Shown in pieces: positions 1,311 to 20,651 of a DNA stretch of 22,270 nucleotides. Within the stretch, counting starts at the first letter, position 1, and every line of letters starts with the position of its first letter. The stretch covers positions 1 through 22,270 of the forward strand of contig DAOOQE010000020.1 in assembly GCA_035388585.1 (NCBI GenBank), read 5' to 3'. The notes under the pieces are model-generated. The model saw only the letters and a program-made list of their open reading frames with translations. It searched no databases and was not told where the DNA came from. Origin of the DNA: Clostridia bacterium. GTDB lineage: Bacteria; Bacillota; Clostridia; TANB77; CAG-508. The translations under genes were made by a program, and so were the position numbers.

Positions 1311-1946
1311 TTATTTGTTTTCATTTCTACTTATTAATTCTTCTACAACTTTATACACTGCTGTGTAGGGATTACATTCTTCACTATCTAATGCTTGTCC
1401 TCTATCTAATTGATATTTTTCAAGCTTTTTGCTATTTGCTATTGCTTGTCCTGTAAAATCTTTAATAGTTAAATATGTATTATTATTTTTAGCATATCCT
1501 TCTACATGTTTTTTAAACTCATTTTGTAAATCATTATTAGATACAAATGATTTTGTTGTATATCCATAATGTAATAAAAACCATAATTCAAATATTGGAG
1601 TTGAAGTTATAATTTCAACCCCATTTTCCTTGGCTAACTTTTTTGCCTCTTCAATTTGTTTTTGTTTATTTTGATTTACATCTGTGTCAAAAACTGCATA
1701 AACTTTATCGTTTTCATCAATTTCTTCTATATCTAAATTTATATAATTTATTATATCTTGAACTATTCCTTTTGGATCTGTACTATTTCCTTTAGCAAAT
1801 TTTATGATACATTTTTTACTATGAAAATTTTTAAAATATAATTTTTCTGTTTTATTTAATCCTTCACATCCAATTATAACAAATGAATTTTTTTGTCTAT
1901 CTTTTTTATTTCTCTTTCTTTGTTCAAATTTTCTCATTCCTGCCAT
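1311..1946 (-). CDS. RloB-like (Toprim-like) protein, partner of the upstream AAA ATPase; AbiLii/RloB type
   Basis: The ORF contains FVIIGCEG..TEKLYF near the N-terminus, then VFDTD, then STPIFELWFLLHYGY. That last motif matches the RloB hallmark SNPCFE(L/F)W(L/F)LLHF. The ORF overlaps the ATPase gene. The start is either 1946 or the ATG at 1937, which forms an ATGA overlap with the ATPase stop. Confidence 0.75.
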   Translation of the reverse strand: MAGMRKFEQRKRNKKDRQKNSFVIIGCEGLNKTEKLYFKNFHSKKCIIKFAKGNSTDPKGIVQDIINYINLDIEEIDENDKVYAVFDTDVNQNKQKQIEEAKKLAKENGVEIITSTPIFELWFLLHYGYTTKSFVSNNDLQNEFKKHVEGYAKNNNTYLTIKDFTGQAIANSKKLEKYQLDRGQALDSEECNPYTAVYKVVEELISRNENK

Positions 1947-3229
1947 AGATTATTACCTGTTGCTACAAAAGGAATTGCACCATATCTACCATTTAAATAT
2001 CCTTTCTGAATATTCTCTGTTTTTCTTACAGAGAAATCATCTAACGGATATAATTCAGTAGCACCTTTCTTTGGATCTTTTTCTGCAAACCATATCTGAT
2101 CTCTTCTAAATAAATCTAATGATAATAAGTTTGTATCATGTGTATTAAATATAAGCTGTGCATTTGCTTTGTTTATTTCTGCATTATGGAAAAATTTTAT
2201 AATCATTTCTACTAAATTAGGATGTAAACTTCTTTCTATTTCATCTATTACTAATAGTTTTCCTTTTTCAAAAACATCCTTTAATATTGGTGCCATTGCA
2301 AATATTATTTTTGTTCCTGATGATTCATTACCTAAATCTAAGTTATATACTTTTGTATTACCTTCTTCATCTGTAACTTCATGAGACATTGTTATACTTT
2401 TAATTACTGTTGTTTTAGGTACAATTACATTAGATGGAACATTCATATTTTTTAATTGCATTATCATTCTAGCATCCATTTCTGCTTCTTCTATTTCTAT
2501 ATTATAATCTTTAATGATAATGTCAGCTTCTTCTAACAACTTTAATGTAAATTTCTTTAAACTTTCGTTTTCATCATCTTTATTATATGCTTCTATCGAA
2601 TATGGATTAAATTCATTTCCACCAATATAAGTATCAATCATATTTGCAAACCATAAATATGGAGCCCTTGTTTTATCATAATTCCATGTTGTTGCTGTTG
2701 ATAAAAATAATTTATTTTCTAAGTTTTGACTTTTTATTGCATTTAATTTAGCCTCATCTACCTGCAAGAATTTATAATCATTGCAATTTGTTCTTTCAAA
2801 TATTCTTGTTGGTTTTGCAGATAAATACTGATATAAATACTCTTCATAAACTTTCTCTTTATCTGCTTTAAATCCATATACATATTTATTTGAATTTGTA
2901 TAAAAAATAAATTCAAACTCACATGGTTCTTTTTTAGTATTTTCATCAAAAGCAAATGGTTCCATTTGAAGTAGTTTTTCTTCTGGCTGTCTATTATTAG
3001 ATAATCTTATCATCATTATTGCTGCAGAAAACGCTTTTATTAAATTCGTTTTTCCTGAAGCATTTGCACCATATAATGCCGTTGTTTTTAATACTCTTTC
3101 ATTTAATTCATCTATATTTATTATATTATCAAGATTTTCATCACCTATTCCAGCTTCCATACTAAAATCTTGTTTTTCTTTAAATGACTTGAATTTTTTA
3201 ACACTAAATTGAACTAACATTTCTATCAC
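1934..3229 (-). CDS. AAA_15/AAA_21-type ABC-like ATPase (RloA/AbiLi-like)
   Basis: Walker A is LYGANASGKTNL, Walker B is LLVIDEIERSLHP, and the H-loop-like motif is QLIFNTHDTNLL. SD AGAGGTGA sits before the ATG at 3229. Confidence 0.8.
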   Translation of the reverse strand: MIEMLVQFSVKKFKSFKEKQDFSMEAGIGDENLDNIINIDELNERVLKTTALYGANASGKTNLIKAFSAAIMMIRLSNNRQPEEKLLQMEPFAFDENTKKEPCEFEFIFYTNSNKYVYGFKADKEKVYEEYLYQYLSAKPTRIFERTNCNDYKFLQVDEAKLNAIKSQNLENKLFLSTATTWNYDKTRAPYLWFANMIDTYIGGNEFNPYSIEAYNKDDENESLKKFTLKLLEEADIIIKDYNIEIEEAEMDARMIMQLKNMNVPSNVIVPKTTVIKSITMSHEVTDEEGNTKVYNLDLGNESSGTKIIFAMAPILKDVFEKGKLLVIDEIERSLHPNLVEMIIKFFHNAEINKANAQLIFNTHDTNLLSLDLFRRDQIWFAEKDPKKGATELYPLDDFSVRKTENIQKGYLNGRYGAIPFVATGNNLWQE

Positions 3230-3647: not shown

Positions 3648-5732
3648 TTATTCATCTATCACCTTTTTTAATTCAAATTCATAGTATTTCTTTAACATTT
3701 CTATAAATTCATCTGTATTATCTTTTTTGCAAATACTTCTTATATATAATTCCATGTTATTTACTAAAATTTTTGTATATGAATAATTTTTTTGTATCCA
3801 TTCATGATTTTCTAATACAATTAATTCATGTGAGTACATTTTAAAATTTCTTATTTCTTCTGGTATTTCATTGTACTCATTAATATTATTATAAATTATA
3901 TAATCTTGTACTAATGCTCTAACTAATTTAGCATTATCATAATATACTTCTTTATATAACCATTTTGATTTTCCATTTTTTCCATTTACGTCTTCTGGTG
4001 ATTTTACATTAATATCGCTTTCAGAAATACTCAACATTTTTTCTATTTCTTTTATCAGCATTTCTTTTCTTGCTTTTATTTGATCTATATTCCAAGTAGT
4101 ATTACCTCTATCATAGTCATCGATTATCTTTCTTGTAAATTCAAATGAAGTAATTCCTGTTTTATTATTTCCATCTTCATCCAAGCCTTTATAAATTCTG
4201 ATTTTTTCATCAAAACCACAATTCAAAGCTTCTTCATTTTTTATATCTTGCAATAAAGCCATATTACCTAATCCATTAAGTTCTTGCATTGCATCTTCAT
4301 CATTAATATAATTCCATTCATCTTTTTGCCCAAATGCTCTTGGTAAAATATGATCCATATGTAATTTACCATCTAACGAATAAAATGCTGTATTTGTTTT
4401 TTCTCTATTTTCATATTCTAATGATAACATTAATGGTTTTAAAAATTTTTCATTATATACATCATTTTTTAATGCATCATATGTTTTAGCAATCATCCTT
4501 CTAGAAATAATTAATCTATTTAAGTCTTCTTTTATATCTTCTATACTATTTCCATTTACAATTGATTCTATTAATTTAAATGATGTTTGTTTTATTTGAT
4601 TTAATGTACACCCTGAAATCAAGCAAATATAAAAAAATCTTCTAATTATTTTAAATAATTCTTCTTTTTTTAAATAGTTTACTGCATATGCACTTGTTAG
4701 TGCTGTCATTACATATGCTCTCCATGGTATATATCTTAAGCTTAATATTTCTGCTTCATTTGATTCATATACCTTTTTTAATGAATTTGAAAAACTATGT
4801 AATTCATCTACTAATTCATATATATCTGATTTTGTTATTATTTCTCTTAATTCATCAACAACCTGTTTCTTTGGGTTTGCTTTTAATTTATAGTATTCAT
4901 AAAAAACTATAAAATCATCAATTTTAAATCCATATTGTTTAGACATATCTTCTATGTATTTCCAATTATTATTAAATATTTGTTTCCCTGTTTCATCATC
5001 TTGATCGTACTTTCCAATAATATATGACTTAACTATATCTGACGGTGATAAATCTAATCCTCTATCATTAAGAACTTGGAAAAGCTTAATTGCAAATGAC
5101 TGATTTGTACACTCAATTTTTATAATATTTGTAGAATAAAATATGTAATTAATAAAATTATCTAAATCTTCTGCATTCAATTCTGACAATTTGTTATAAA
5201 AAAATACAGCAGAATTAATATATTTATATTGTGGATCGTCATATTTTAATTCTTTTTTTGTTGGTTCACTCATATCAGAAAATGTATCACAATTAATTAC
5301 AATATCATTAAATAATGAATCATATTTAGGATCTGTTTGTAATTGCAAACGATTTCTTCTTCCTTGAAACATTATACAATTTTGTATTTTTTCTTTGTCA
5401 GCCACAAATATAGCATCATTATCTTTGTTGATTTCTGGAAAATCTTTTAATAATACATTCATAAGTATTATTAGTGTTGTTATTCTCTGTTGTCCATCTA
5501 TTAATTCATAATATCCTTTTCCATCATTTACTACTACAATCGATCCTAAAAAGTAACAGTCATTTCCTTCACTTTTATTTTGATATGCTTCATATAAATC
5601 TTCCCATAATGCATCTAATTGGTCATTTGTCCAACTATATTGTCTTTGATAATTAGGTATTTTATATATTCCATCACAAGAAAAGATTTCACTTATTGTT
5701 TGATTTATTGGTTTAAATGTTTCTATAGCCAT
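3648..5732 (-). CDS. GmrSD-family type IV (modification-dependent) restriction enzyme: N-terminal DUF262, DUF1524 His-Me finger, plus an extra C-terminal region
   Basis: The DUF262 motifs are IPNYQRQYSW and DGQQRITTL. The DUF1524 motif is HMDHILPR...GNMALLQ...N. The likely start is the ATG at 5732, because the track's GTG at 5741 lies inside the SD GAGGTG. Confidence 0.8.
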   Translation of the reverse strand: MAIETFKPINQTISEIFSCDGIYKIPNYQRQYSWTNDQLDALWEDLYEAYQNKSEGNDCYFLGSIVVVNDGKGYYELIDGQQRITTLIILMNVLLKDFPEINKDNDAIFVADKEKIQNCIMFQGRRNRLQLQTDPKYDSLFNDIVINCDTFSDMSEPTKKELKYDDPQYKYINSAVFFYNKLSELNAEDLDNFINYIFYSTNIIKIECTNQSFAIKLFQVLNDRGLDLSPSDIVKSYIIGKYDQDDETGKQIFNNNWKYIEDMSKQYGFKIDDFIVFYEYYKLKANPKKQVVDELREIITKSDIYELVDELHSFSNSLKKVYESNEAEILSLRYIPWRAYVMTALTSAYAVNYLKKEELFKIIRRFFYICLISGCTLNQIKQTSFKLIESIVNGNSIEDIKEDLNRLIISRRMIAKTYDALKNDVYNEKFLKPLMLSLEYENREKTNTAFYSLDGKLHMDHILPRAFGQKDEWNYINDEDAMQELNGLGNMALLQDIKNEEALNCGFDEKIRIYKGLDEDGNNKTGITSFEFTRKIIDDYDRGNTTWNIDQIKARKEMLIKEIEKMLSISESDINVKSPEDVNGKNGKSKWLYKEVYYDNAKLVRALVQDYIIYNNINEYNEIPEEIRNFKMYSHELIVLENHEWIQKNYSYTKILVNNMELYIRSICKKDNTDEFIEMLKKYYEFELKKVIDE

Positions 5733-5951
5733 TTTTTTCACCTCTATTATTTTTAATCTGTTATTTCTCTAATAAATTGATCTAACTTAATGCTTTCTAT
5801 TCAAAAAAATTCACTAACATTTGATATCTTGTTAGGATCGCTTCCCTCATTAGTAACAATCCCTCATTTTACTTTTATTGCAATTGCTATAAAAATGGAT
5901 CACCATTTGAACTTGATTTTTTTCCTTTAACTTAAAAATACTGTTGTATAG

Positions 5952-6458
5952 CTATTTTACACAAGATAGATATTCTTTATATTTTTTTAACATCCTTATT
6001 TTTATAAAATCTTCCATATATTTATAATTTATACTTCCGATATTTGTAACAGGTAATAAAATTTTCTCTCTTTTTATGCTTTCCTGATTTCCCATTTTTC
6101 CATAACAATATTTTGAACATGTCCTTCTTATTATTTGAGAAAAAAAGATACCTGAATATCTATTAATTTGTTCATTATATAACAATAATATTGATGATCC
6201 AGCTCCACCTCTGCCCAAAAAATTAATGTTTTGATAAAAAGAACTTCCATCTACAGGACTTACAGTTATACAATTTCCTTTGTCTAATTCTTTATCTTTT
6301 TCTAATGGTTCACAAAATCTTATTACACCATTATTGACATTTCCAGAAGCAATAAATGGTATTTTTCCATCTTGATACTGTTTTTCTGAACGTGCAATTG
6401 ATCTTCTAACATTGAATATATTACCCACAAAGAATTCTTTCCATTCAACGTCATTCAA
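5952..6458 (-). CDS. Specificity (S) subunit, second target-recognition domain; an out-of-frame continuation of 6472..7035, probably not independently translated
   Basis: It begins (L)NDVEWKEFFVGNIF, the typical TRD entry motif, and ends ILLPV..NYKYMEDFIKI..KKYKEYL, which parallels the C-terminus of the upstream half. It has only a TTG start, no SD and no in-frame ATG until far inside. Confidence 0.7.
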   Translation of the reverse strand: MNDVEWKEFFVGNIFNVRRSIARSEKQYQDGKIPFIASGNVNNGVIRFCEPLEKDKELDKGNCITVSPVDGSSFYQNINFLGRGGAGSSILLLYNEQINRYSGIFFSQIIRRTCSKYCYGKMGNQESIKREKILLPVTNIGSINYKYMEDFIKIRMLKKYKEYLSCVK

Positions 6459-6471
6459 TTCTGAAATTTGC

Positions 6472-7035
6472 TTATAATGCGTTACCCCCCCCTAGTTTTT
6501 CAAGGGTTTCAGTGCAATATTTAATATATTCTTTTCTTTTTCTTAATTCTATTTCTTTAATATATTCTTCCATAAATCTATAATCTGGTTTTTCATTTTC
6601 ATCTATAGGCAGTAAAATACTTTTTCTTGGTAAATCAGTACTTGATAATTGATTTCCATATGAGCTGTCTCTTGTATTGTTATTAATTGCTGTAATTAAA
6701 AACAATGCCAAATTTTCACTTAATTCTCTATCAATTAGTTTTAATGCATGTACCTTCATATCCAATGTTGCCTTTCCTTTTTGATAGAATGAATTCCCTA
6801 AAAAGTTAACACTTATAAAATTTGAGAATTCTCTTTTATTTTTATCATTGGTATCCCTGTAGCCATCTACTCCATTATTTTGTGATGTGACTGTTATTCT
6901 TGGCGTTTTTCCTTCATTTAAATTTGCTTTGTTGATATACGCACCTGTAGGAACCTGAGTGCCATCGTTATCCTTAGTTTCAAAAATTTCGCCTATTTTA
7001 AATTCTTTCCACTTCTTTTCGCTAAGACTATTCAT
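6472..7035 (-). CDS. Specificity (S) subunit, first target-recognition domain, truncated just after a G8 tract
   Basis: The sequence is MNSLSEKKWKEFKIGEIFE... and ends SILLPIDENEKPDYRFMEEYIKEIELRKRKEYIKYCTETLEKLGGGNAL*. The ATG at 7035 overlaps the methyltransferase stop by 8 nt. The track start at 7056 is a TTG. Confidence 0.75.
   Translation of the reverse strand: MNSLSEKKWKEFKIGEIFETKDNDGTQVPTGAYINKANLNEGKTPRITVTSQNNGVDGYRDTNDKNKREFSNFISVNFLGNSFYQKGKATLDMKVHALKLIDRELSENLALFLITAINNNTRDSSYGNQLSSTDLPRKSILLPIDENEKPDYRFMEEYIKEIELRKRKEYIKYCTETLEKLGGGNAL
6485..6492 (-). repeat. Homopolymer C8 (G8 on the coding strand) at the junction of the two S-subunit halves
   Basis: Counted directly: gttaCCCCCCCCtag. 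This is the longest G/C run in a very AT-rich window, and it sits 10 nt upstream of the S-half-1 stop. Confidence 0.95.
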
Positions 7036-8944
7036 TTTCAGTATCCTCACTTTCAAACATGTATTTTCTCCCTTGCATTATCATTGAAAATTCAAAAGAC
7101 AAATAATCACCAACTGTTTTTTCAAACTCACTTGCTGTTGGAATTTCATCATTAAAATAATAATAACTATGTAACCATTCATCCGTTGGTTCTATTGTTG
7201 TTTTAACACAAAATTTTGTATCATCCTCTATTTTATCAAACCAAACATCAAGCAAATGCTGTTTTTTATCAATTGCTGATTCCGTTTCTATTAATCCAAT
7301 ATGTGGGGCTACTTTATAACCATCATTTTCAAAATTTATAAATTTGCATTCTTTTTCTTTTGGATGTGGCTCACCTGTTGTAAAAATAGCTATACATGGC
7401 ATTGTACCAACTCCATAAAAAGTATCCCCATTTAATGTAATTACCCCTTCTAAAGTATGGTGTTTTAGTATATTTTCTTTTATTGCTTGTTCTTCTTTTG
7501 TTTTTCCCGTTACTGAAGACTGTGGAATAATTACAATTGCTCTTCCTCTTGATACAAGACTATCTAATAAATGCTCTACAAAATTAATTTCATATAAATT
7601 AGGATTTTGTTTTGATCCTTGTGAATAAGGAGGATTCATCATTCCAACTGTTGCACCTTTTAATTGTAATTTATTTGAATCTTGTTTCAAAAAATCATCA
7701 CAATGTAAATTGCTTTTTCCATCTCCTCTTAATATCATATTAGTTGTTGCAATTGTAAACATATAATCTTGTAATTCATATCCATGTAATTGATCTCTTT
7801 TTATTGATTTCTTTTGATTATCATTTTTAGCTTTCTTTAACATATTATGCATTGCTGAAACTAAAAAGCCCGCGGTTCCACAACAGGGATCTAATACAAC
7901 ATCTTCTGGTTTTAAATCTATTAAATCACAAAATAAATTACATATGTGTTTTGGTGTTAAGACTATTCCTAAGCTTTGACCATCACTTCCAGAATAACTC
8001 ATAAACTCTCCATAGAATCTTCCTAAATAATCTTCACTTGTATTATTATATCTAATTGTTTTATATAATTTATTATGCAGAAATTCAGTATAATATCTTA
8101 ATGGAGTAACTCCAAGTGTTTCATTTATCTCATTTAAAATCACAGTATTTTTTATTATAGCAAATTGACTTAATAATTTATCTTTTTTGGTTTCTGGAGA
8201 TACCTGGGATCTTCTTAGGTTATCTTTAATTGCTGAATATATTTTTGCACCATCAGTATTTATTTCATCTCCATTTAAATCATTGATAGAAAAATTTTTA
8301 TAATCTATTTCTTTTAAAGCCAAAAGAATTCCGCTTACTACTAATGGTTTGTCTTTATCACTTAAATTCCCATAATTTCTTAAATTTTCATGCAATTCTT
8401 TAGCATCTTTTAATATTTCTTCAGTTGTTTTTTCATCATCTGTTGCTTCTTTTAATATTTCTCTTATATAGTACTCATCTATATTATCTTCATTAAAAGA
8501 TATGAAACTTTCAACCTCTGGCAAATCCATAAAATATTCTCTTCCATCCAAATAAATTGGTTTTATTATGTGCCTTTTTTCATCTCCACTTATACCAAAT
8601 GCAATTGCTTTCTTATAATGAGTATTTTCTAATATATGTTTAGCATAGAAATATGCACCATTTAAGGCATAATCAGTTACTGAATTAACACTCATATCCA
8701 ATATTCCATTTTCATTGAATTTTGCCTGTTTATCTACACTTGCCTTATCTTCAATAACAATTACAAAATCTTTTACAACGCCACAATATTCAGGAAATCC
8801 TGTATTTCCTGTTCTTTTTTTTGAAGCTGTTTTTAATGCATTATCTAATGCTACTATTTGACTTCCTTGTGGATCTAAATTCAAATTTGCATCTTTTAAT
8901 AAATCATATACCCATAGATCTGTTCTAACTTCCTTCTTTGCCAT
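7028..8944 (-). CDS. Fused PD-(D/E)xK-like N-terminal domain + gamma-class N6-adenine DNA methyltransferase (BcgI-A-like type IIB architecture; alternatively an atypical HsdM)
   Basis: The methyltransferase motif I is VLDPCCGTAGFL and motif IV is GMMNPPYSQG. The N-terminus has GFPEY-x13-VIVIEDKAS, a PE...ExK nuclease-like signature. The gene is translationally coupled to the S gene downstream and the HTH gene upstream. Confidence 0.7.
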   Translation of the reverse strand: MAKKEVRTDLWVYDLLKDANLNLDPQGSQIVALDNALKTASKKRTGNTGFPEYCGVVKDFVIVIEDKASVDKQAKFNENGILDMSVNSVTDYALNGAYFYAKHILENTHYKKAIAFGISGDEKRHIIKPIYLDGREYFMDLPEVESFISFNEDNIDEYYIREILKEATDDEKTTEEILKDAKELHENLRNYGNLSDKDKPLVVSGILLALKEIDYKNFSINDLNGDEINTDGAKIYSAIKDNLRRSQVSPETKKDKLLSQFAIIKNTVILNEINETLGVTPLRYYTEFLHNKLYKTIRYNNTSEDYLGRFYGEFMSYSGSDGQSLGIVLTPKHICNLFCDLIDLKPEDVVLDPCCGTAGFLVSAMHNMLKKAKNDNQKKSIKRDQLHGYELQDYMFTIATTNMILRGDGKSNLHCDDFLKQDSNKLQLKGATVGMMNPPYSQGSKQNPNLYEINFVEHLLDSLVSRGRAIVIIPQSSVTGKTKEEQAIKENILKHHTLEGVITLNGDTFYGVGTMPCIAIFTTGEPHPKEKECKFINFENDGYKVAPHIGLIETESAIDKKQHLLDVWFDKIEDDTKFCVKTTIEPTDEWLHSYYYFNDEIPTASEFEKTVGDYLSFEFSMIMQGRKYMFESEDTENE

Positions 8945-9163
8945 TTATAATTCCTCCCCTTTATCATTTTTCAATTCCATTATATCTTCTATATTACATT
9001 CTAATACACTACAAATTTTGGCTAACACCTCTACTTGTACCGACTCATTTTTACCTAATTTAGCCATTGCATTTGTAGTGATTTTAGCTTTCTCACAAAG
9101 CTCCGTTTTATTGATTTTCTTGTCTATCATAAGCTTCCATAATTTATAATAACTTATTGTCAT
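8945..9163 (-). CDS. XRE-family helix-turn-helix regulator (controller/C-protein-like), first gene of the R-M operon
   Basis: The 72-aa product contains INKTELCEKAKITTNAMAKLGKNESVQVEVLAKICSVLECNIEDI, a typical HTH_3/HTH_26 pattern. Its stop abuts the methyltransferase ATG. SD GGAGG precedes the ATG at 9163. Confidence 0.75.
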   Translation of the reverse strand: MTISYYKLWKLMIDKKINKTELCEKAKITTNAMAKLGKNESVQVEVLAKICSVLECNIEDIMELKNDKGEEL

Positions 9164-9199: not shown

Positions 9200-9228
9200 A
9201 TTCTATCATTTTCGACATTTTTTATCAA
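9200..9228 (-). promoter_or_regulatory. Candidate promoter of the HTH/R-M operon
   Basis: The minus strand reads TTGATA (9228-9223), a 17-nt spacer, then TAGAAT (9205-9200). The spacer contains one copy of an 11-nt repeat that recurs at the start codon. Confidence 0.55.
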
Positions 9229-12528: not shown

Positions 12529-12581
12529 GATAAATCTGGTTGCGGGGGTAAGACTCGAACTTACGACCTTCGGGTTATGAG
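12529..12581 (-). repeat. att-like direct repeat, copy 2 (tRNA-Met 3' fragment; tRNA-like part 12537-12581)
   Basis: It is exactly identical to 84-136 and diverges immediately after the anticodon loop (TGCCGAAGG here, CCCGACGAAGC in copy 1). It has no D arm or 5' acceptor. Confidence 0.8.
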
Positions 12582-14006: not shown

Positions 14007-14064
14007 TCCTCTTCGGTATTATACTATATTCATCTATTAATATCTATTAAAATTCCATAAATAC

Positions 14065-14094
14065 TTGACTTTTGGCTTTATTTAAGTGATTAAT
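14065..14094 (+). promoter_or_regulatory. Candidate promoter of backbone operon, copy 2
   Basis: TTGACT (14065-14070), an 18-nt spacer, then ATTAAT (14089-14094). This is conserved with copy 1. Confidence 0.4.
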
Positions 14095-14122
14095 AACAGC
14101 AATTTTTAAGGAGGTGAATTAT

Positions 14123-14413
14123 ATGAGCTTTAGAGAAGTTCGTGATGACATTTTTAGATATTGGCTTGATTATCGTGAAGGAACTGAACTTGCTTTTACT
14201 AATTCTGAAGATAAAAAACATGTGATACTTTTTGATGAAATTTGTGAAAATATTTTAAATAATGTTTCTGGAAGTAATTATGAATATATTCAAAAACAAT
14301 TAAATAAACTTGATGATAATTTTATGGATTATGTTGGTTATTGGAATGAAAAGTATTATAGAAATGGTTTCTGTGACGGCTTAGAATTGATAATAGGCTG
14401 TTTAAATAAATAA
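14123..14413 (+). CDS. Hypothetical 96-aa backbone protein, copy 2
   Basis: The ATG at 14123 follows AAGGAGGTG. It has one amino-acid difference (D to Y) from copy 1. Confidence 0.75.
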   Translation: MSFREVRDDIFRYWLDYREGTELAFTNSEDKKHVILFDEICENILNNVSGSNYEYIQKQLNKLDDNFMDYVGYWNEKYYRNGFCDGLELIIGCLNK

Positions 14414-14657: not shown

Positions 14658-17600
14658 CTAATACTCATCTTCATCCCAAACGAACTTTATGAATTTTGAA
14701 TAGTCTACTTTTTTATTCATTTCTTGATAAATTTCATATTTACAATTTTTACAATTTTCTTTATATTCAATGTTTATCGAAGATAAGTTATTATTTTTTA
14801 TGTTTTGTATAATATTACCATTTTCATCAATTTCAATATGCATAGATGCTTCTTCATTCCAGCCTTTATCTAAATAGCTTTTTTCTGTATATGCCCAATA
14901 TTTTATTTGATGTTCTTTCATAACTTCCTCTAAATATTTAGTTTTTATGTAGATCACTCCTGTTATAGGATTATTATAATAAGATTTGCTATTATTATCA
15001 CAATAAGCTATAGCCTCTCCATCAGCATTATCCCATGTTGAATATTTCCTGTTATAGTGTAAATTTAGTTCTGACACTATTATGTTCGGCGGCAATTTTA
15101 AATATGTTTCTTTAAAATCCAGAGAATTATATTCTATATCTCTTATTCTCATTGACCTTTCATAATTTTTTTCTTTATATTTTTCTATGTTTCCTATATA
15201 ATCTTTATTCCCTATTGTTAATTCTTTTGGTTCTATATCCGCTGCTATACTTCTTATTGAGTCTATACCAACATTATAATCATATGTTTCTGTATATATA
15301 TGTTTATTATCTTTATCTGACACATATCTATGAATATCTGCACATATTAATGTCCATTGTTCTTTTTCACATAATATTGGTGTCATTAACTTTTTTATAT
15401 TTTCAATAGAAAGTTCCTTTTTATTATACCATTCATCATCTCTTTTACCATATAAATCTAATCTTTTAATAACTTCATTATTTAATCTATCTATTTTTTC
15501 ACAATATATACTAACTGGAGAACATATCCTATATTCTTCTTCATTTAAATTAATAGGTTCATAAACTTTATATCCAAATGTTTTGTTGTCATTATACACA
15601 CTAATTTCATTTGTAAAATAATTACACATTAGTGAACCTAATAATATGTCCTGTGATATTAATAAAATTTTCTTTAAAATCGAATTACCGAACACATTAA
15701 GATGAGTATCAAATTTATCATTTTCTTTTGAATATCTATAATTATACTTATCACAAATATCTATAAATACTTTCTGAAATGCTATAAATATTTTTCGGTT
15801 ATCTATTTCTATTATCTGCAATGGTTTTAAATGTTTTTTGAACCTTTCACCATTGCCATATTTACAATACCCATCATCTTTTACACATCCAAATTTATTA
15901 TTTAATTCTTTATTCCATTCTATAATTTCATCTTTGTCATTTAAAATAAAATTATTATATATTGATAATTCATTTTCTTTATTATATCTTTCAAATTTCA
16001 ATAAATATTTTTCATAAATATCAGCTATAAAAATTATATAATTTAAATCAATATCCTTATCTACATGGTCATTTTCCGTAATTTCATTGTAAATATCATA
16101 TTTATTTAATTCAATGTATTCTATATTTCTTTCTAAAAAATCAGATATTCTATAAATTATTTCAGCATCTATTTGTGAATAATCATTTAAAACATCTTCT
16201 AGAAAATTAATCAAATTATCATCTTTAATATTAGTAGCTGTTAGTACTCTTATTATACCTTTCCTGATATAGTATTCATCGACTTTATAATAGTATTCGC
16301 GTAATATATCTGCATAATCATTAAATTTATCTACAATATCAAACAAAACTTTTAAAGCTAATTTTCTAATTCTGTCATTTGAGGATGATGTTAACCAAAA
16401 AGAATACCAAAATGCCTCTTCAATATAATCATTTTTTTCCTCAATAAAAATAATACTATATAACATATTTTTTAGTTTCATTATATATATTGAATCAGAA
16501 TAATTAACAGTTATGCCTCCCATATAATTTTTATTTTCTATTAATTTATTTGTTAAATAATTACTACAATTAAAAGGTCTGCTATGATATCCTCCTAAAT
16601 CCAAAAAAACGCTTTGCACATTTCTTATTGTAAATTCATTTTGTATAAAATCTATTTGCTCTTTTGAAAAGACAATTTTCTTAAGTATTGATAATTCAAA
16701 ATATTCTTTCAATTTTGAATTGAATATAATATTTAATGCTCTTTTAATATTTTGGTTTTTAAAACGGTCAAATATTAATATAATAAACGGCTCATATAAA
16801 GAATACATTTTAGATAATTTTTCATTAATCATATCGATTATTTTATCATCACTTAATCCATTAATTTTGTCGTGCAAAGTTCTAGCAATAATAAAATCAG
16901 AAAGCTTTTGTATATTAAAAACATATCTTTTTTTACTATCATAAATGTAAAAATCTATCAAACTGTTACTTTTCATCGTTCCTATATAATCTATTGCTTC
17001 ATTCTTCAATATGTTTTTAATTTCTTGTTCCTCTACTGATGTTTTATTATTTTCAAACATATATGTACCTAATTTTTTTTTATTATCCCAATATTTTCTA
17101 CCACATATTGTTTTTATATATTGTTCTAATATAAAAGTTACTTGTACTAAATCACCAATTTCTTCTTTTTTTATTTTAGGATTTTCTAATATCTTGTATA
17201 ACATTTTTAAATATAAAGGATTATTAGTTTCAATAACATCAATAAACTTTGTCACTTCTACACCATATGTTTCGATTATTTTTGTTAAACTTGATTCATA
17301 TTCCACTCCTTTAAAAGTATATATATTTTTTAGTATATTTTTTAAACTTTCTTCTATATCCAAATCAAGATTCTTGGTTCTATAACTAACAATAATGTTT
17401 ATATTACCTTTCGTTGCCATTTTTCTTATAAATTCCAGCATAACTTTCTGTTCATTTTGTTCTAACTCATTAAATGCATCTATAATCAAATAAAATTCGT
17501 TATCTATATTTTTAATTCTTTCTTCTATTTCCTTCTCAATACTTTTTGTATATTTACAATAAATACATAAATGTTGTATTGATAATCTTTCCAGTTCCTC

Positions 17601-18050
17601 CTCTAATTTAAATAAAAAGTAACTCTTTCCTATTCCACCTTCCCCATCCATTAAAAGTCTATTCGCCATCGATAGATTTTTTTTGTAATATTCAATATCA
17701 TATTTATTATGATATTTTAGAATTTCAAATTTCTCAAGAATAAATTTAAACTCTTTGTCTATATTTTCTATAAATGTCTTTTCTTTAATCTCCCTTCTAT
17801 TCATCTTTCTGATATTATCATTAATATTCTTTAAATAATCCCTATTATCTAAAAATTCTTTTGGATTATTAGAATATGGATGAATATCATCAAATCGCTT
17901 CAAAAGTACATTCATTATTTCTTCATCTTCCCATTTTAAATCAAAATCTGTTCTTGTTTCTGAAATCATATGCATTCTGTTTTTATAATTAATTTCATCT
18001 ATTGTCACATTTATCTCCTTCTTTTTTTTCATTAAATACAAAAAAAGCAA
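14658..18050 (-). CDS. Large STAND/NACHT-like P-loop NTPase with a helical (HEAT/ARM-like) repeat region and an uncharacterised C-terminal domain; candidate defence protein
   Basis: The Walker A motif is LLMDGEGGIGKSYF. The Walker B-like motif FYLIIDAFNELE lies about 50 residues later. A HEAT-like signature (SSSNDRIRKLALKVLFDIVD...IRKGIIRVLT) follows. The true start is probably the GTG at 18008 (AAGGAG, then 6 nt) or the ATG at 18032, because a hairpin plus T-run overlaps the first track codons. Confidence 0.7.
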   Translation of the reverse strand: MLFLYLMKKKKEINVTIDEINYKNRMHMISETRTDFDLKWEDEEIMNVLLKRFDDIHPYSNNPKEFLDNRDYLKNINDNIRKMNRREIKEKTFIENIDKEFKFILEKFEILKYHNKYDIEYYKKNLSMANRLLMDGEGGIGKSYFLFKLEEELERLSIQHLCIYCKYTKSIEKEIEERIKNIDNEFYLIIDAFNELEQNEQKVMLEFIRKMATKGNINIIVSYRTKNLDLDIEESLKNILKNIYTFKGVEYESSLTKIIETYGVEVTKFIDVIETNNPLYLKMLYKILENPKIKKEEIGDLVQVTFILEQYIKTICGRKYWDNKKKLGTYMFENNKTSVEEQEIKNILKNEAIDYIGTMKSNSLIDFYIYDSKKRYVFNIQKLSDFIIARTLHDKINGLSDDKIIDMINEKLSKMYSLYEPFIILIFDRFKNQNIKRALNIIFNSKLKEYFELSILKKIVFSKEQIDFIQNEFTIRNVQSVFLDLGGYHSRPFNCSNYLTNKLIENKNYMGGITVNYSDSIYIMKLKNMLYSIIFIEEKNDYIEEAFWYSFWLTSSSNDRIRKLALKVLFDIVDKFNDYADILREYYYKVDEYYIRKGIIRVLTATNIKDDNLINFLEDVLNDYSQIDAEIIYRISDFLERNIEYIELNKYDIYNEITENDHVDKDIDLNYIIFIADIYEKYLLKFERYNKENELSIYNNFILNDKDEIIEWNKELNNKFGCVKDDGYCKYGNGERFKKHLKPLQIIEIDNRKIFIAFQKVFIDICDKYNYRYSKENDKFDTHLNVFGNSILKKILLISQDILLGSLMCNYFTNEISVYNDNKTFGYKVYEPINLNEEEYRICSPVSIYCEKIDRLNNEVIKRLDLYGKRDDEWYNKKELSIENIKKLMTPILCEKEQWTLICADIHRYVSDKDNKHIYTETYDYNVGIDSIRSIAADIEPKELTIGNKDYIGNIEKYKEKNYERSMRIRDIEYNSLDFKETYLKLPPNIIVSELNLHYNRKYSTWDNADGEAIAYCDNNSKSYYNNPITGVIYIKTKYLEEVMKEHQIKYWAYTEKSYLDKGWNEEASMHIEIDENGNIIQNIKNNNLSSINIEYKENCKNCKYEIYQEMNKKVDYSKFIKFVWDEDEY

Positions 18051-18106: not shown

Positions 18107-18970
18107 TTAATTAAAAACCTTTTTCATTACTCCATTTTTCATATCAGCAATATTATAAATATTATCCATTCTATCAAATGTTTCTTTTAAATTATTTCTT
18201 GCAGAAATCCATCCCATTCCATCTGTAAACCACACAAATTCAAAGCCTACAACTTTATCTGATTCTTCTGATAACATTTTATAGCTTCTTGCTGTTTCAT
18301 TTAATTTTGAGCCACCTGTAGCATAGAAATTAGTTTCAATTCCATAAATGCAATTATCCGTTTTAACTACAAAATCAAATCTCTTAGTTGATTGATTTTT
18401 ATTGCTTATAAAAGACATGTCTAATTTCCATTTTTCTTCTATATCTTGTAAATACATTTCTTTAAAATATGTTTCATTCTTCTTAAATCCAGCTTTTTGA
18501 ATAAATTTTTCTACAACATCTTCCATTAAATGTCCACCACGATTCTTTCTTGCATTCGAATTTAATCCACATTCAACTCCTAAAACATAATCATACAAAT
18601 TATTTACCATATGATTATGTAGCAAATCAAAAAGTCCTGTTTCTTTCATAAATACTTTATATTGTTCAACATCATAATTCATTTTTTTAAAATTATATTC
18701 AAATTTATTTCCTTCTTCATCTAGCACAATAATTTCTGATTGTCTTACTGCTAAAAGAGTAGGAATACATTTTAATACTTCTGGATATTTCTTTACTAAT
18801 TCTTCAAAATCATTTTCTATATTTTGACTACTAATTAGTGAATTTAAAATATTTAATTCTATTTTATATATTTCTGCATTTTTATATATAGTTTCAAAAT
18901 CTATGTAATATTTATAGTTAGCTATACTATCTGTAAAAGTTAACAGCCATTCTGCAAAATTTCTTTTCAT
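18107..18970 (-). CDS. dpnB: DpnII/MboI-family type II restriction endonuclease (GATC)
   Basis: The sequence appears collinear with my recollection of S. pneumoniae DpnII: NFAEWL..TDS.A...YY.DF..YKN.....ELNILNSLI.S.NIE.DF, then GLFDLL.NH.V.NL.DYV.GVE.G...N.RKNR.G..ME. It is the last gene of the M-M-R operon. Confidence 0.8.
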   Translation of the reverse strand: MKRNFAEWLLTFTDSIANYKYYIDFETIYKNAEIYKIELNILNSLISSQNIENDFEELVKKYPEVLKCIPTLLAVRQSEIIVLDEEGNKFEYNFKKMNYDVEQYKVFMKETGLFDLLHNHMVNNLYDYVLGVECGLNSNARKNRGGHLMEDVVEKFIQKAGFKKNETYFKEMYLQDIEEKWKLDMSFISNKNQSTKRFDFVVKTDNCIYGIETNFYATGGSKLNETARSYKMLSEESDKVVGFEFVWFTDGMGWISARNNLKETFDRMDNIYNIADMKNGVMKKVFN

Positions 18971-18972
18971 AT

Positions 18973-19746
18973 TTATTCCTCCATTATTTCTTTATATCTT
19001 CTTATTGATAAATCCAAATATTCTTTTGATTTATCAATTCCAACAAAATTTCTATTTAGTTTACTAGCAGCAACTCCTGTTGTACTGCTCCCACTGAATG
19101 GATCCAATATTAAATCATTTTCATTTGTTGATGCTAATATTATTCTTTCTAATACTTCTAATGGTTTCTGTGTAGGATGCTTCCCGTGTTTCTTTTCAGA
19201 TGGTTTAGTTAACGAAGTAGTCCATACATCCTTCATTTGTTTATTATTATTTAACTCTTTCATTAAATTATAGTTAAACTTATACTTTACTTTTGGTAAA
19301 TCTTTTCTTGCCCATAATATTGTTTCTGTTGAATGTGTAAAAGTTTTACATGCTAAATTAGGAGATGGATTTGTTTTCTGCCAAGTAATATTATTGATTA
19401 TTTTAAATCCTTCTTCTTCTAATGCCATACCAATTGAATATACATTGTGAAGAGTTCCACTTATCCATATTGTTCCTTCATCTTTTAAAACTCTATAACA
19501 TTCCTTTATCCAATTTCTATTATATTCATGTTTTTCTTTTACTGTTGATGTCTTATCCCATTTTCCTTTATTTACACTAACCATTTTTCCACTGCTACAA
19601 GTTATTCCATCATTGGATAAAAAATATGGAGGATCTGCAAAAATCATATCAAATGATTTTTCTCTCATTTCCTTTAGTGAATCAAAAGTATCATTATCGA
19701 TTAGTTTAAAACTATCTTCTTCAAAGTAGAATTTTCCTGGATACAT
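18973..19746 (-). CDS. dpnA: Beta-class N6-adenine DNA methyltransferase, DpnA-like (second methylase of a DpnII-type cassette)
   Basis: Motif IV (MIFADPPYFLSNDG) is N-terminal and motif I (ILDPFSGSSTTGVAA) is C-terminal. NITWQKTNP and GKHPTQKP blocks match DpnA as I recall it. Confidence 0.8.
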   Translation of the reverse strand: MYPGKFYFEEDSFKLIDNDTFDSLKEMREKSFDMIFADPPYFLSNDGITCSSGKMVSVNKGKWDKTSTVKEKHEYNRNWIKECYRVLKDEGTIWISGTLHNVYSIGMALEEEGFKIINNITWQKTNPSPNLACKTFTHSTETILWARKDLPKVKYKFNYNLMKELNNNKQMKDVWTTSLTKPSEKKHGKHPTQKPLEVLERIILASTNENDLILDPFSGSSTTGVAASKLNRNFVGIDKSKEYLDLSIRRYKEIMEE

Positions 19747-20651
19747 TCATTCATCTCCTCGTAGTTAGTAATAAGCAATTCTGATATTGCTCCTCTACCT
19801 TTAGCATTTGCATTTATCATTCTTTTTGCTGATACTTCATTTATATTAAATCCTTTATATATTTCTTCAAAAAAAGTATCTTCTTCATTAGTGTTTTTAG
19901 GATTTGAATTTGACAACATTAGTTTAGCGTTTTTCAAACTTAATTCTCTAAAATATATTGCTAATTCTTTTTGATTTTCATCATTAAAATCTTCTTTTGT
20001 ATACGATGTAAATCCTGATGAAACTGATAATGGTCTATAAGGTGGATCAAAATAAACAAAAGTATTATTATCTATATATTTTTCACTTTTTTTGTAGTCT
20101 CCATATTTAAAAACCACACTTCTTATTAAATAAGATAAGTTTCTCAAATTTTCAGAATCGCAGATTTTAGGATTTTTATATTTACCACATGGCACATTAT
20201 AATCACCACTTTTATTTACTCTATACAGTCCATTAAAACATGTTCTATTCAAAAATATAAATTCACTTGCTCTTTTTATACTTTGTTCATTTTCGCTTAT
20301 TTTATATGAATTATATTCTTTTCTAATATTATAAAAATACTTTTGTCTTTCATCAGATTCCAATACAAGAAATTCTTTTTCTTTTTTATATAATTCATGT
20401 ATTATCTCTTCAACATTATTTTTAATAACATTATAACAATTTATTAGATCCATATTTATATCAAAAGCATATGCTTCTTTAACATCATATTTTTGTAAAA
20501 TATTTATTAAAACTGCTCCTCCACCAATAAATGGTTCTACATATTTAGTTATTTTATCTCTCTCTATTTCAAATGGGTAAAATTTTTTTATTTGTGGAAT
20601 CAAACTTCCTTTTCCTCCGGCCCATTTTACAAACGGTCTTATTTCTTTCAT
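19701..20651 (-). CDS. dpnM: Dam-family (alpha-class) N6-adenine DNA methyltransferase, DpnM-like (GATC)
   Basis: The motifs are FVKWAGGK, EPFIGGGAV, NGLYRVN and FVYFDPPY, and it ends ELLITNY. SD AGGAGA precedes the ATG at 20651. Its 3' end overlaps the dpnA start by 46 nt. Confidence 0.85.
   Translation of the reverse strand: MKEIRPFVKWAGGKGSLIPQIKKFYPFEIERDKITKYVEPFIGGGAVLINILQKYDVKEAYAFDINMDLINCYNVIKNNVEEIIHELYKKEKEFLVLESDERQKYFYNIRKEYNSYKISENEQSIKRASEFIFLNRTCFNGLYRVNKSGDYNVPCGKYKNPKICDSENLRNLSYLIRSVVFKYGDYKKSEKYIDNNTFVYFDPPYRPLSVSSGFTSYTKEDFNDENQKELAIYFRELSLKNAKLMLSNSNPKNTNEEDTFFEEIYKGFNINEVSAKRMINANAKGRGAISELLITNYEEMNECIQENSTLKKIVLN

Follow-up and report, generated by a model that had tools for sequence, protein, structure and literature searches.

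A poly-G tract splitting the specificity gene of a BcgI-like Type IIB restriction-modification locus as a probable contingency locus

The 22,270-nucleotide contig DAOOQE010000020.1 from a Clostridia bacterium (assembly GCA_035388585.1; the whole stretch is termed the window below) carries a restriction-modification (RM) locus whose specificity (S) gene is interrupted by a run of eight guanines (G8). This run is probably, with a likelihood of about three in four, a hypermutable contingency locus in a BcgIB-like S gene, its length changing by slipped-strand mispairing, which is the established mechanism for such tracts. An initial annotation of this DNA, made from its letters, had proposed a poly-G switch here, and the proposal is now supported by length polymorphism in a sister lineage and by the recurrence of the tract across the wider family.

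The G8 tract and the split S gene

The split gene lies on the minus strand and comprises the following features, where TRD denotes a target recognition domain.

6472–7035, minus strand: S half 1, first TRD (TRD1) with the complete central helix (CR1), 187 amino acids (aa), closed by a TAA stop due to the G8 frame
6485–6492, minus strand: G8 homopolymer, the frameshifting tract (C8 on the plus strand)
5952–6458, minus strand: S half 2, second TRD (TRD2) with the C-terminal helix (CR2), 168 open codons, in another frame than half 1

The coding strand reads CTA GGG GGG GGT AAC GCA TTA TAA across the tract, with the TAA stop at 6474–6472. From the ATG at 7035, which overlaps the RM stop by 8 nt, translation enters the tract as GAA AAA CTA GGG and gives a product with the C-terminus EKLGGGNAL, so that strand reading and stop position agree with the earlier statement that G8 splits the specificity gene. 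This exact protein is already public (HOZ55238.1) and matches the PADLOC model Specificity_II PDLC03591 (1.5e-16), while the frame of half 2 begins (TTG)NDVEWKEFFVGNIF. When the tract was edited in silico, G7 and G10 gave proteins of 360 and 361 aa, respectively, reproducing the predicted fusion to about 360 aa, and G5, G6, G8, G9, G11 and G12 gave 183–188 aa only. The tract is a repeat within an open reading frame (ORF) whose change of length shifts the frame, a defining trait of phase-variable loci.

Both halves contain a Pfam Methylase_S domain (1.3e-14 and 2.6e-12), show 27% mutual identity and end in a common helix, ILLP...Y(R/K)(F/Y)ME(E/D)(Y/F)IK...KEY, which bears out the tandem TRD-plus-helix architecture read earlier from the translations. 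The G7 product has 877 homologues, nearly all of them two-TRD proteins of 340–365 aa, the best of which is aligned over 100% of the length. Because the G7 product aligns end to end with these intact two-TRD homologues, the split of the S gene is judged on alignment not to be ancestral. The closest intact homologue is a 358-aa sister allele (P0001), the AlphaFold2 model of which has a mean predicted local distance difference test (pLDDT) score of 92.3 and a fold resembling Type I S subunits and the BsaXI S chain (chain C). In this model the central helix spans residues 152–184, TRD2 begins at about residue 193, and the tract codons (182–184) form the last turn of the helix, so that the G8 product would consist of exactly TRD1 and a complete CR1.

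The tract is also over-represented against both base composition and codon usage. One G8 run is observed in the window where 0.03 are expected, shuffling with dinucleotides preserved produced any such run in just 2 of 100 cases, and no other G/C run reaches 6 nt anywhere in the window (25% GC), in line with the earlier remark that it is improbable by chance in DNA this AT-rich. GGG accounts for 8.5% of the glycine codons in the window genes, and a glycine-rich linker is not present in the tract-less S homologues. As these linkers are not glycine-rich and GGG is rare, the run is taken to be a feature at the DNA level rather than a requirement of the protein.

Half 2 was said in the initial annotation to have neither an ATG nor a Shine-Dalgarno (SD) sequence, and both are indeed absent, but in-frame alternative starts exist: a TTG at 6458–6456, 13 nt past the half-1 stop, and a GTG 10 codons beyond it, from which the gene callers' ORFs of 168 and 158 aa derive. 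The encoded domain is 66% identical to TRD2 of an intact homologue (P0002) and free of secondary lesions, while the chance of a 168-codon open frame at the base composition of the window is roughly estimated at 1e-8. The locus might be functionally complete at G8, either by slippage of some of the ribosomes or RNA polymerases on the run, or by reinitiation at the TTG, which would yield a split S subunit (TRD2-CR2 plus TRD1-CR1) of the original bipartite specificity. The proximity of the TTG to the half-1 stop, the calling of the second ORF and the full integrity of half 2 agree with this, as does the reported functionality of a circularly permuted BsaXI S subunit (PMC9159934). The absence of an SD sequence ahead of either the TTG or the GTG speaks against it, as does the finding that BsaXI TRD2-CR2 alone is not expressible and CR1-TRD2-CR2 is capable of nicking only (PMC9159934). 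No pseudoknot or stimulatory hairpin for recoding turned up either, although no dedicated search for one was made. A locus that is functionally complete at G8 is considered quite improbable.

Tract length in a sister lineage

The half-1 protein falls into a 90% cluster whose other members belong to a sister lineage with the N-terminus MINLSKKKW and a different TRD2, and the sister RM protein is in the same 90% cluster as that of the window. Twenty-six sister contigs were retrieved from different samples among public metagenomes, all with identical tract flanks (GAAAAACTA-Gn-TAAC...). Comparison of tract length across relatives had been suggested as a check of the switch, and in these contigs it varies as follows.

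G4, in frame: LGVTPYKQ..., 357 aa; 1 contig (L018)
G5: LGGNTL and stop, 186 aa; 1 contig (L019)
G6: LGG and stop, 183 aa; 10 contigs (L007–L014, L188–L189)
G7, in frame: LGGVTPYKQ..., 358 aa; 11 contigs (L004–L006, L180–L187)
G8: LGGGNTL and stop, 187 aa; 3 contigs (L015–L017)

The protein lengths on record match these tract lengths exactly. In-frame and out-of-frame lengths occur on otherwise identical alleles, in every case between samples. Over the 3026 bp of the RM and S genes, the tract is the sole difference between L007 (G6) and L015 (G8). Three lengths, G6 (L007, L012), G7 (L181, L185) and G8 (L015), occur on one 3-kb background that is identical at all single-nucleotide polymorphisms (SNPs). 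On a second background G6 and G7 are found, together with G4 in a contig with one extra SNP (L018), and on a third G7 and G8. The haplotypes imply six or more independent slips, against about 10 SNP columns in the 3026 bp, so that the tract changes, on a rough estimate, about a thousand times faster than the average site. Just one other indel is found in the compared 3 kb, a 14-bp deletion that disrupts the RM gene, and the A/T runs of 6–7 nt, 12 in number, show no length variation.

The same comparison bears on whether the eighth guanine of the window is a sequencing or assembly error added to a true G7. Homopolymers are error-prone and the data are all metagenome assemblies. However, the assemblies from three different pipelines (ENA, JGI and Logan) agree on G8 in the lineage of the window, the sister lengths recur across samples (G6, G7 and G8 in the numbers listed above), and the other homopolymers in the compared 3 kb are invariant, all of which makes an artefact hardly credible.

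A second G6 run is present inside the RM gene of two diverged sister contigs (5308–5313 in L004 and 4159–4164 in L005), where it encodes R-G-D (AGGGGGGAT). The run is interrupted in the window at about 7730–7745 (AGAGGAGAT), an exact-pattern search of the other sister contigs found none, and no length variation of it was seen.

The tract in the wider family

Searches with the RM protein as query yielded 160 loci of 67–80% identity, these being the best 80 loci per collection out of about 1200 pattern-matched. Their hosts include Bacilli and Clostridia metagenome-assembled genomes (MAGs), Lachnospiraceae, Oscillospiraceae, Alphaproteobacteria, Campylobacterales (about 70% identity) and Acinetobacter, among others. 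The S region is complete in 137 of these loci, in which the tracts were counted, and a run of G6–G10 occurs at the same TRD1/TRD2 junction in 38 of them (28%). The run is out of frame in 21 of these 38, compared with no more than 9 short S ORFs among the 99 loci that have no tract. Frame state was assigned by a test for a stop in the S frame, except that three loci (L078, L079 and L083) with a stop 180 nt past the tract were set to out of frame by hand. A further locus, L094, with an incomplete S region and therefore outside the 137, has G12.

The flanks of the tract fall into several sequence families, and pairs of loci with the same flanks differ by one guanine: L042 (G9) and L043 (G8), L076–L077 (G9) and L078 (G8), L039 and L046, and L041 and L119. 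The G run is thus, on sequence comparison, a recurrent DNA-level feature of the family. Some family members (L069, L073, L083, L089, L097 and L098) have three-TRD S genes encoding 534–547 aa when open (S region about 4900–6530 in locus coordinates), with G runs at both TRD junctions (for example G9 and G7 in L097, G9 and G8 in L098, G8 and G8 in L083, G10 and G7 in L073). L097 and L098 share the same flanks, with the second tract one guanine apart.

The lineage of the window and the case for decay

Several observations weigh against a contingency locus. G8 is present in every assembly with the identical RM protein (the window and L001–L003), and the hypothetical G6, G7, G9, G10 and G11 products of the window allele are all absent from a collection of 15 billion proteins. 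A gapped exact-pattern scan of the metagenome_contigs collection for the tract flanks gave no match, the JGI contig evidently not being part of that collection. A tract of G7–G8 is at the short end of those usually called phase-variable. In the sister lineage, the RM gene of L019 (1092–3008) contains a nonsense change leaving ORFs of 165 and 455 aa, and that of L188 (1106–3008) contains the 14-bp deletion leaving 384 and 260 aa, the same 260-aa fragment being found in L189; these broken RM genes co-occur with an out-of-frame S tract. Some sister copies are simply decaying.

The absence of length variation near the window has to be read together with the nature of the assemblies. The window differs from L001 and L002 at 8 positions, all of them in 113 bp (14224–14336) within a long direct repeat. 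A view of these assemblies as two strains, 8 SNPs apart and all with G8, was rejected on this ground, and the cluster is better explained by gene conversion, or by an assembly that mixed copies of the repeat, than by divergence of strains. With the differences confined to the repeat, the assemblies effectively represent one strain, and finding only G8 among them is weak evidence. Slippage in the exact strain of the window, and its reversibility, is inferred from the variation in the sister lineage and the family.

Alternatively, the S gene would have been permanently inactivated by a one-off +1 frameshift at a hotspot, the tract being an accident of Gly-Gly-Val codons and the lengths elsewhere representing independent pseudogenisations, and neither adaptive nor reversible switching would take place. 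In addition to the sole G8 and the broken sister RM genes, the fast turnover of defence islands, one of which the window represents, is in keeping with such decay. It does not sit well with half 2, the RM gene and the upstream helix-turn-helix (HTH) gene having no secondary lesions, with the persistence of the tract across diverged lineages and in more than a quarter of the family loci with varied flanks, or with the retention of rare GGG codons in DNA of such low GC content. In-frame and out-of-frame lengths, including the in-frame G4, alternate on identical haplotypes, which indicates repeated changes of the tract and not a single loss. Simple decay of the S gene is thus regarded as unlikely, and a slippage-prone contingency locus is preferred.

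Classification as a BcgI-like Type IIB system

The S gene is preceded by two further genes of the same strand.

7028–8944, minus strand: RM fusion subunit, BcgIA-like, Type IIB/IIG, 638 aa, intact (PADLOC, Pfam and motifs)
8945–9163, minus strand: Cro/C1-type HTH gene, 72 aa, directly abutting the RM start (Pfam HTH_26, 5.7e-19)

The RM protein matches the PADLOC model REase_MTase_IIG PDLC03602 end to end (residues 3–634 on positions 3–634 of 637, E=2e-169), while the PADLOC models of Type I methyltransferases match residues ~295–549 only and Pfam N6_Mtase covers residues 303–585. It contains the motifs P51-E52...E65-D-K67 and N437-P-P-Y440, whose conservation among 54 family members is 96% or higher, and thus combines in one polypeptide an N-terminal PD-(D/E)XK nuclease motif with a C-terminal gamma-class N6-adenine methylase (NPPY). 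A separate HsdS-like two-TRD gene, contiguous at G7 or G10 and split as sequenced, lies directly downstream, and its halves match the 341-position PADLOC model of a 'Type II specificity subunit'. No HsdR, ResIII or helicase gene was found among the ORFs of the 22-kb window, where a distant gene would not have been seen. No family-specific NCBIfam match was obtained for the RM or the S gene, and the sole sequence matches of the RM protein in the PDB were M subunits of Type I systems, over the methylase half.

Given the end-to-end match to the RM-fusion profile, the nuclease and NPPY motifs, the HsdS-like S gene and the lack of HsdR in the window, the locus is classified, on profile and motif evidence, as a BcgI-like Type IIB system consisting of an HTH, an RM and an S gene. 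Membership in Type I was rejected, as methylase and PD-ExK nuclease are parts of one fusion protein and HsdR is missing from the window. The system should accordingly no longer be filed under a generic or Type I 'subunit S' but as a BcgI-like Type IIB enzyme. The HTH gene is a possible C-protein-like controller and first gene of the operon. A promoter-like site lies upstream of it at 9228–9200 on the minus strand, but such sites are no commoner than chance, and the scan of the window for promoters and terminators performed no better than shuffles. The sister lineage is without the 72-aa HTH gene and has in its place a 160-aa ORF with no Pfam match.

Proposed switch and its consequences

In the proposed mechanism, replication slippage would change the length of the run, which lies in the codons that specify the final turn of the central coiled coil. 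At G7 (and likewise at G4 and G10), TRD1-CR1 and TRD2-CR2 would be read in one frame to give a normal two-TRD S subunit, which would bring a pair of RM subunits to a bipartite, asymmetric site. At G8, G5, G6 or G9, a stop 0–4 codons past the tract would leave a TRD1-CR1 half-subunit, so that the window (G8) would be in the truncated state, with its RM gene, HTH gene and TRD2 all intact. The split S gene would then be one phase-variable gene in its truncated state, and neither two genes nor a dead pseudogene.

Two outcomes of truncation may be envisaged and, by analogy with characterised systems, appear roughly equally likely. Either the TRD1+TRD2 specificity would be lost, with cutting and methylation both off, or the half-subunit would dimerise and retarget the RM protein to a symmetric TRD1/TRD1 site. 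The broader idea of a natural specificity switch, and not just an on/off one, in an enzyme that cuts as well as methylates, between an asymmetric TRD1+TRD2 target and the symmetric target of a TRD1-CR1 homodimer, common across the BcgI-like family at the frequency found in the survey, is put forward tentatively, as a possibility that is rather more doubtful than the contingency locus itself. If it were true, members with three TRDs and two runs would have more than two states, it would have to be asked how cells withstand it when a Type IIB nuclease abruptly turns to another target, and repeat-driven epigenetic switching would join the inversion-driven switching described in gut commensals.

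Genomic surroundings

Profile searches of the window ORFs place the RM-S locus within a defence island, the other members of which are as follows.

1311–3229: AbiLi/AbiLii
3648–5741: GmrSD (Type IV)
14658–18050, minus strand: ORF of 1130 aa, faint P-loop/STAND-like matches (NPHP3_N, Hda), no PADLOC match
18107–20651, minus strand: DpnII-type cassette of a D12-class Dam-like methylase, an N6_N4 methylase and a DpnII endonuclease (8e-108)

The 1130-aa ORF, located between the long island repeat described below and the DpnII-type cassette, may encode an uncharacterised defence NTPase. As the DpnII-type cassette is complete, the island stacks Type II, Type IIB and Type IV (GmrSD) systems with AbiL. 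An exact 53-nt direct repeat is present in two copies (84–136 and 12529–12581), the reverse complement of which resembles the part of a tRNA-Met(CAT) gene from the anticodon loop to the CCA end, while ARAGORN found no complete tRNA in the window. A longer direct repeat of 300–600 nt, 93–96% identical, lies at 658–957 (extending to ~1243) and 14051–14350 (extending to ~14635). The repeats bracket a block of about 12.4 kb with AbiLi/AbiLii, GmrSD and the BcgI-like system; this suggests that an island, or a tandem array of islands, has inserted at a tRNA gene, although no integrase was identified. The RM-S pair of the sister lineage adjoins a CBASS-like operon in place of GmrSD (7283–10564 in L004; also in L007–L019 and L180–L188), which encodes a DncV-like nucleotidyltransferase, a ThiF/E1-like protein and a SUa-2TM effector.

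Comparison with known systems

The archetype of Type IIB is BcgI from Bacillus coagulans, an A2B assembly with an HsdS-like B subunit, in which BcgIA (71.6 kDa) contains Glu53 in a PD...EXK motif as well as a methylase, and BcgIB (39.2 kDa) has two domains (PMC3592470). The locus is likened to it by motifs and architecture, Glu53 corresponding to P51-E52...E65-x-K67 and the B subunit to the fused S protein of 360 aa, and the matched PADLOC profiles (637 and 341 positions) compare with the two BcgI subunits. No poly-G switch of BcgI is described in PMC3592470.

The closest precedent, as judged by architecture, is the poly-G S gene of Helicobacter pylori, HP1471/JHP1364. The BcgI-like pairs HP1471/HP1472 and JHP1364/JHP1365 (Hpy99XXII) have S genes with G13 or G14 for which a tendency to phase variation was noted (Krebes et al. 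2014, PMC3936762), the tract being G14 in the published genomes and G13 in the authors' stocks of the same strains (PMC3936762). Both systems were inactive at G13 and one of the two was active after repair, which included an added start codon and ribosome-binding site besides the correction of the frameshift and led, in strain J99, to TCAN6TRG methylation (PMC3936762). The H. pylori systems, like that of the window, combine an RM fusion with a separate S gene in which a G repeat decides whether the full-length protein is made. They differ in tract length (G13/G14 versus G8) and in host, a mismatch-repair-deficient Epsilonproteobacterium versus an uncultured low-GC Bacillota MAG, and the window S gene, unlike theirs, has its own ATG and SD sequence overlapping the RM stop.

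NgoAV of Neisseria gonorrhoeae (hsdS1/hsdS2; Adamczyk-Poplawska 2011) had been named at the outset as a parallel. Loss of one guanine there changes the target from GCAN8TGC to GCAN7STCA (PMC9577141), the truncated HsdS is active, and 6–9 guanines occur among strains (PMC9577141). The likeness holds for the tract, since in both loci the S gene is split by a poly-G run where the first TRD-plus-helix ends, and the loss of one guanine fuses the halves, but not for the class of the system: NgoAV is Type I, with a separate HsdM and an ATP-dependent HsdR, whereas the window locus is BcgI-like Type IIB, with nuclease and methylase in one polypeptide. The window locus would work like NgoAV without being a member of Type I, and its half-subunit may, by analogy, be active. 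Among Type I hsdS genes in REBASE, simple sequence repeats were found in 7.8%, always between the TRDs, and a switch between full-length and truncated S was predicted (Atack et al. 2020, PMC7383803); the 28% of 137 Type IIB loci found here is higher than this figure. Three-TRD 'extended' hsdS genes with G[n] tracts were reported from Mannheimia and Fusobacterium (PMC7383803), which L097, L098, L083 and L073 resemble, although these are Type IIB and that survey covered annotated Type I genes only.

BsaXI, a Type IIB enzyme, is like the window locus in having an RM fusion and an S subunit organised as TRD1-CR1-TRD2-CR2 (structure 8W0P), of which TRD1-CR1 is the type of product encoded at G8. As reported by Gidwani, Heiter and Xu (2022, PMC9159934), an engineered TRD1-CR1 directs cleavage by the RM protein to a new site, the symmetric AC N5 GT. 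That truncation is engineered and not natural, and the BsaXI RM protein has no detectable sequence similarity to that of the window, being absent from its PDB sequence matches. Should the half-subunits prove active, loci of the present kind would be natural counterparts of the TRD1-CR1 retargeting engineered in BsaXI.

A poly-G run between TRDs is already known from Type I hsdS and from the H. pylori BcgI-like S genes, to which the present locus adds one more case. What may be new is how common this device is in a Type IIB family of uncultured commensals. The frequency found suggests that poly-G switching of S genes is frequent in uncultured gut and digester bacteria, in which phase variation of methylation has been charted mainly through inversions; a recent survey of epigenetic phase variation in the gut microbiome looked at structural variants, mainly inversions, and does not mention such repeats (PMC11741434).

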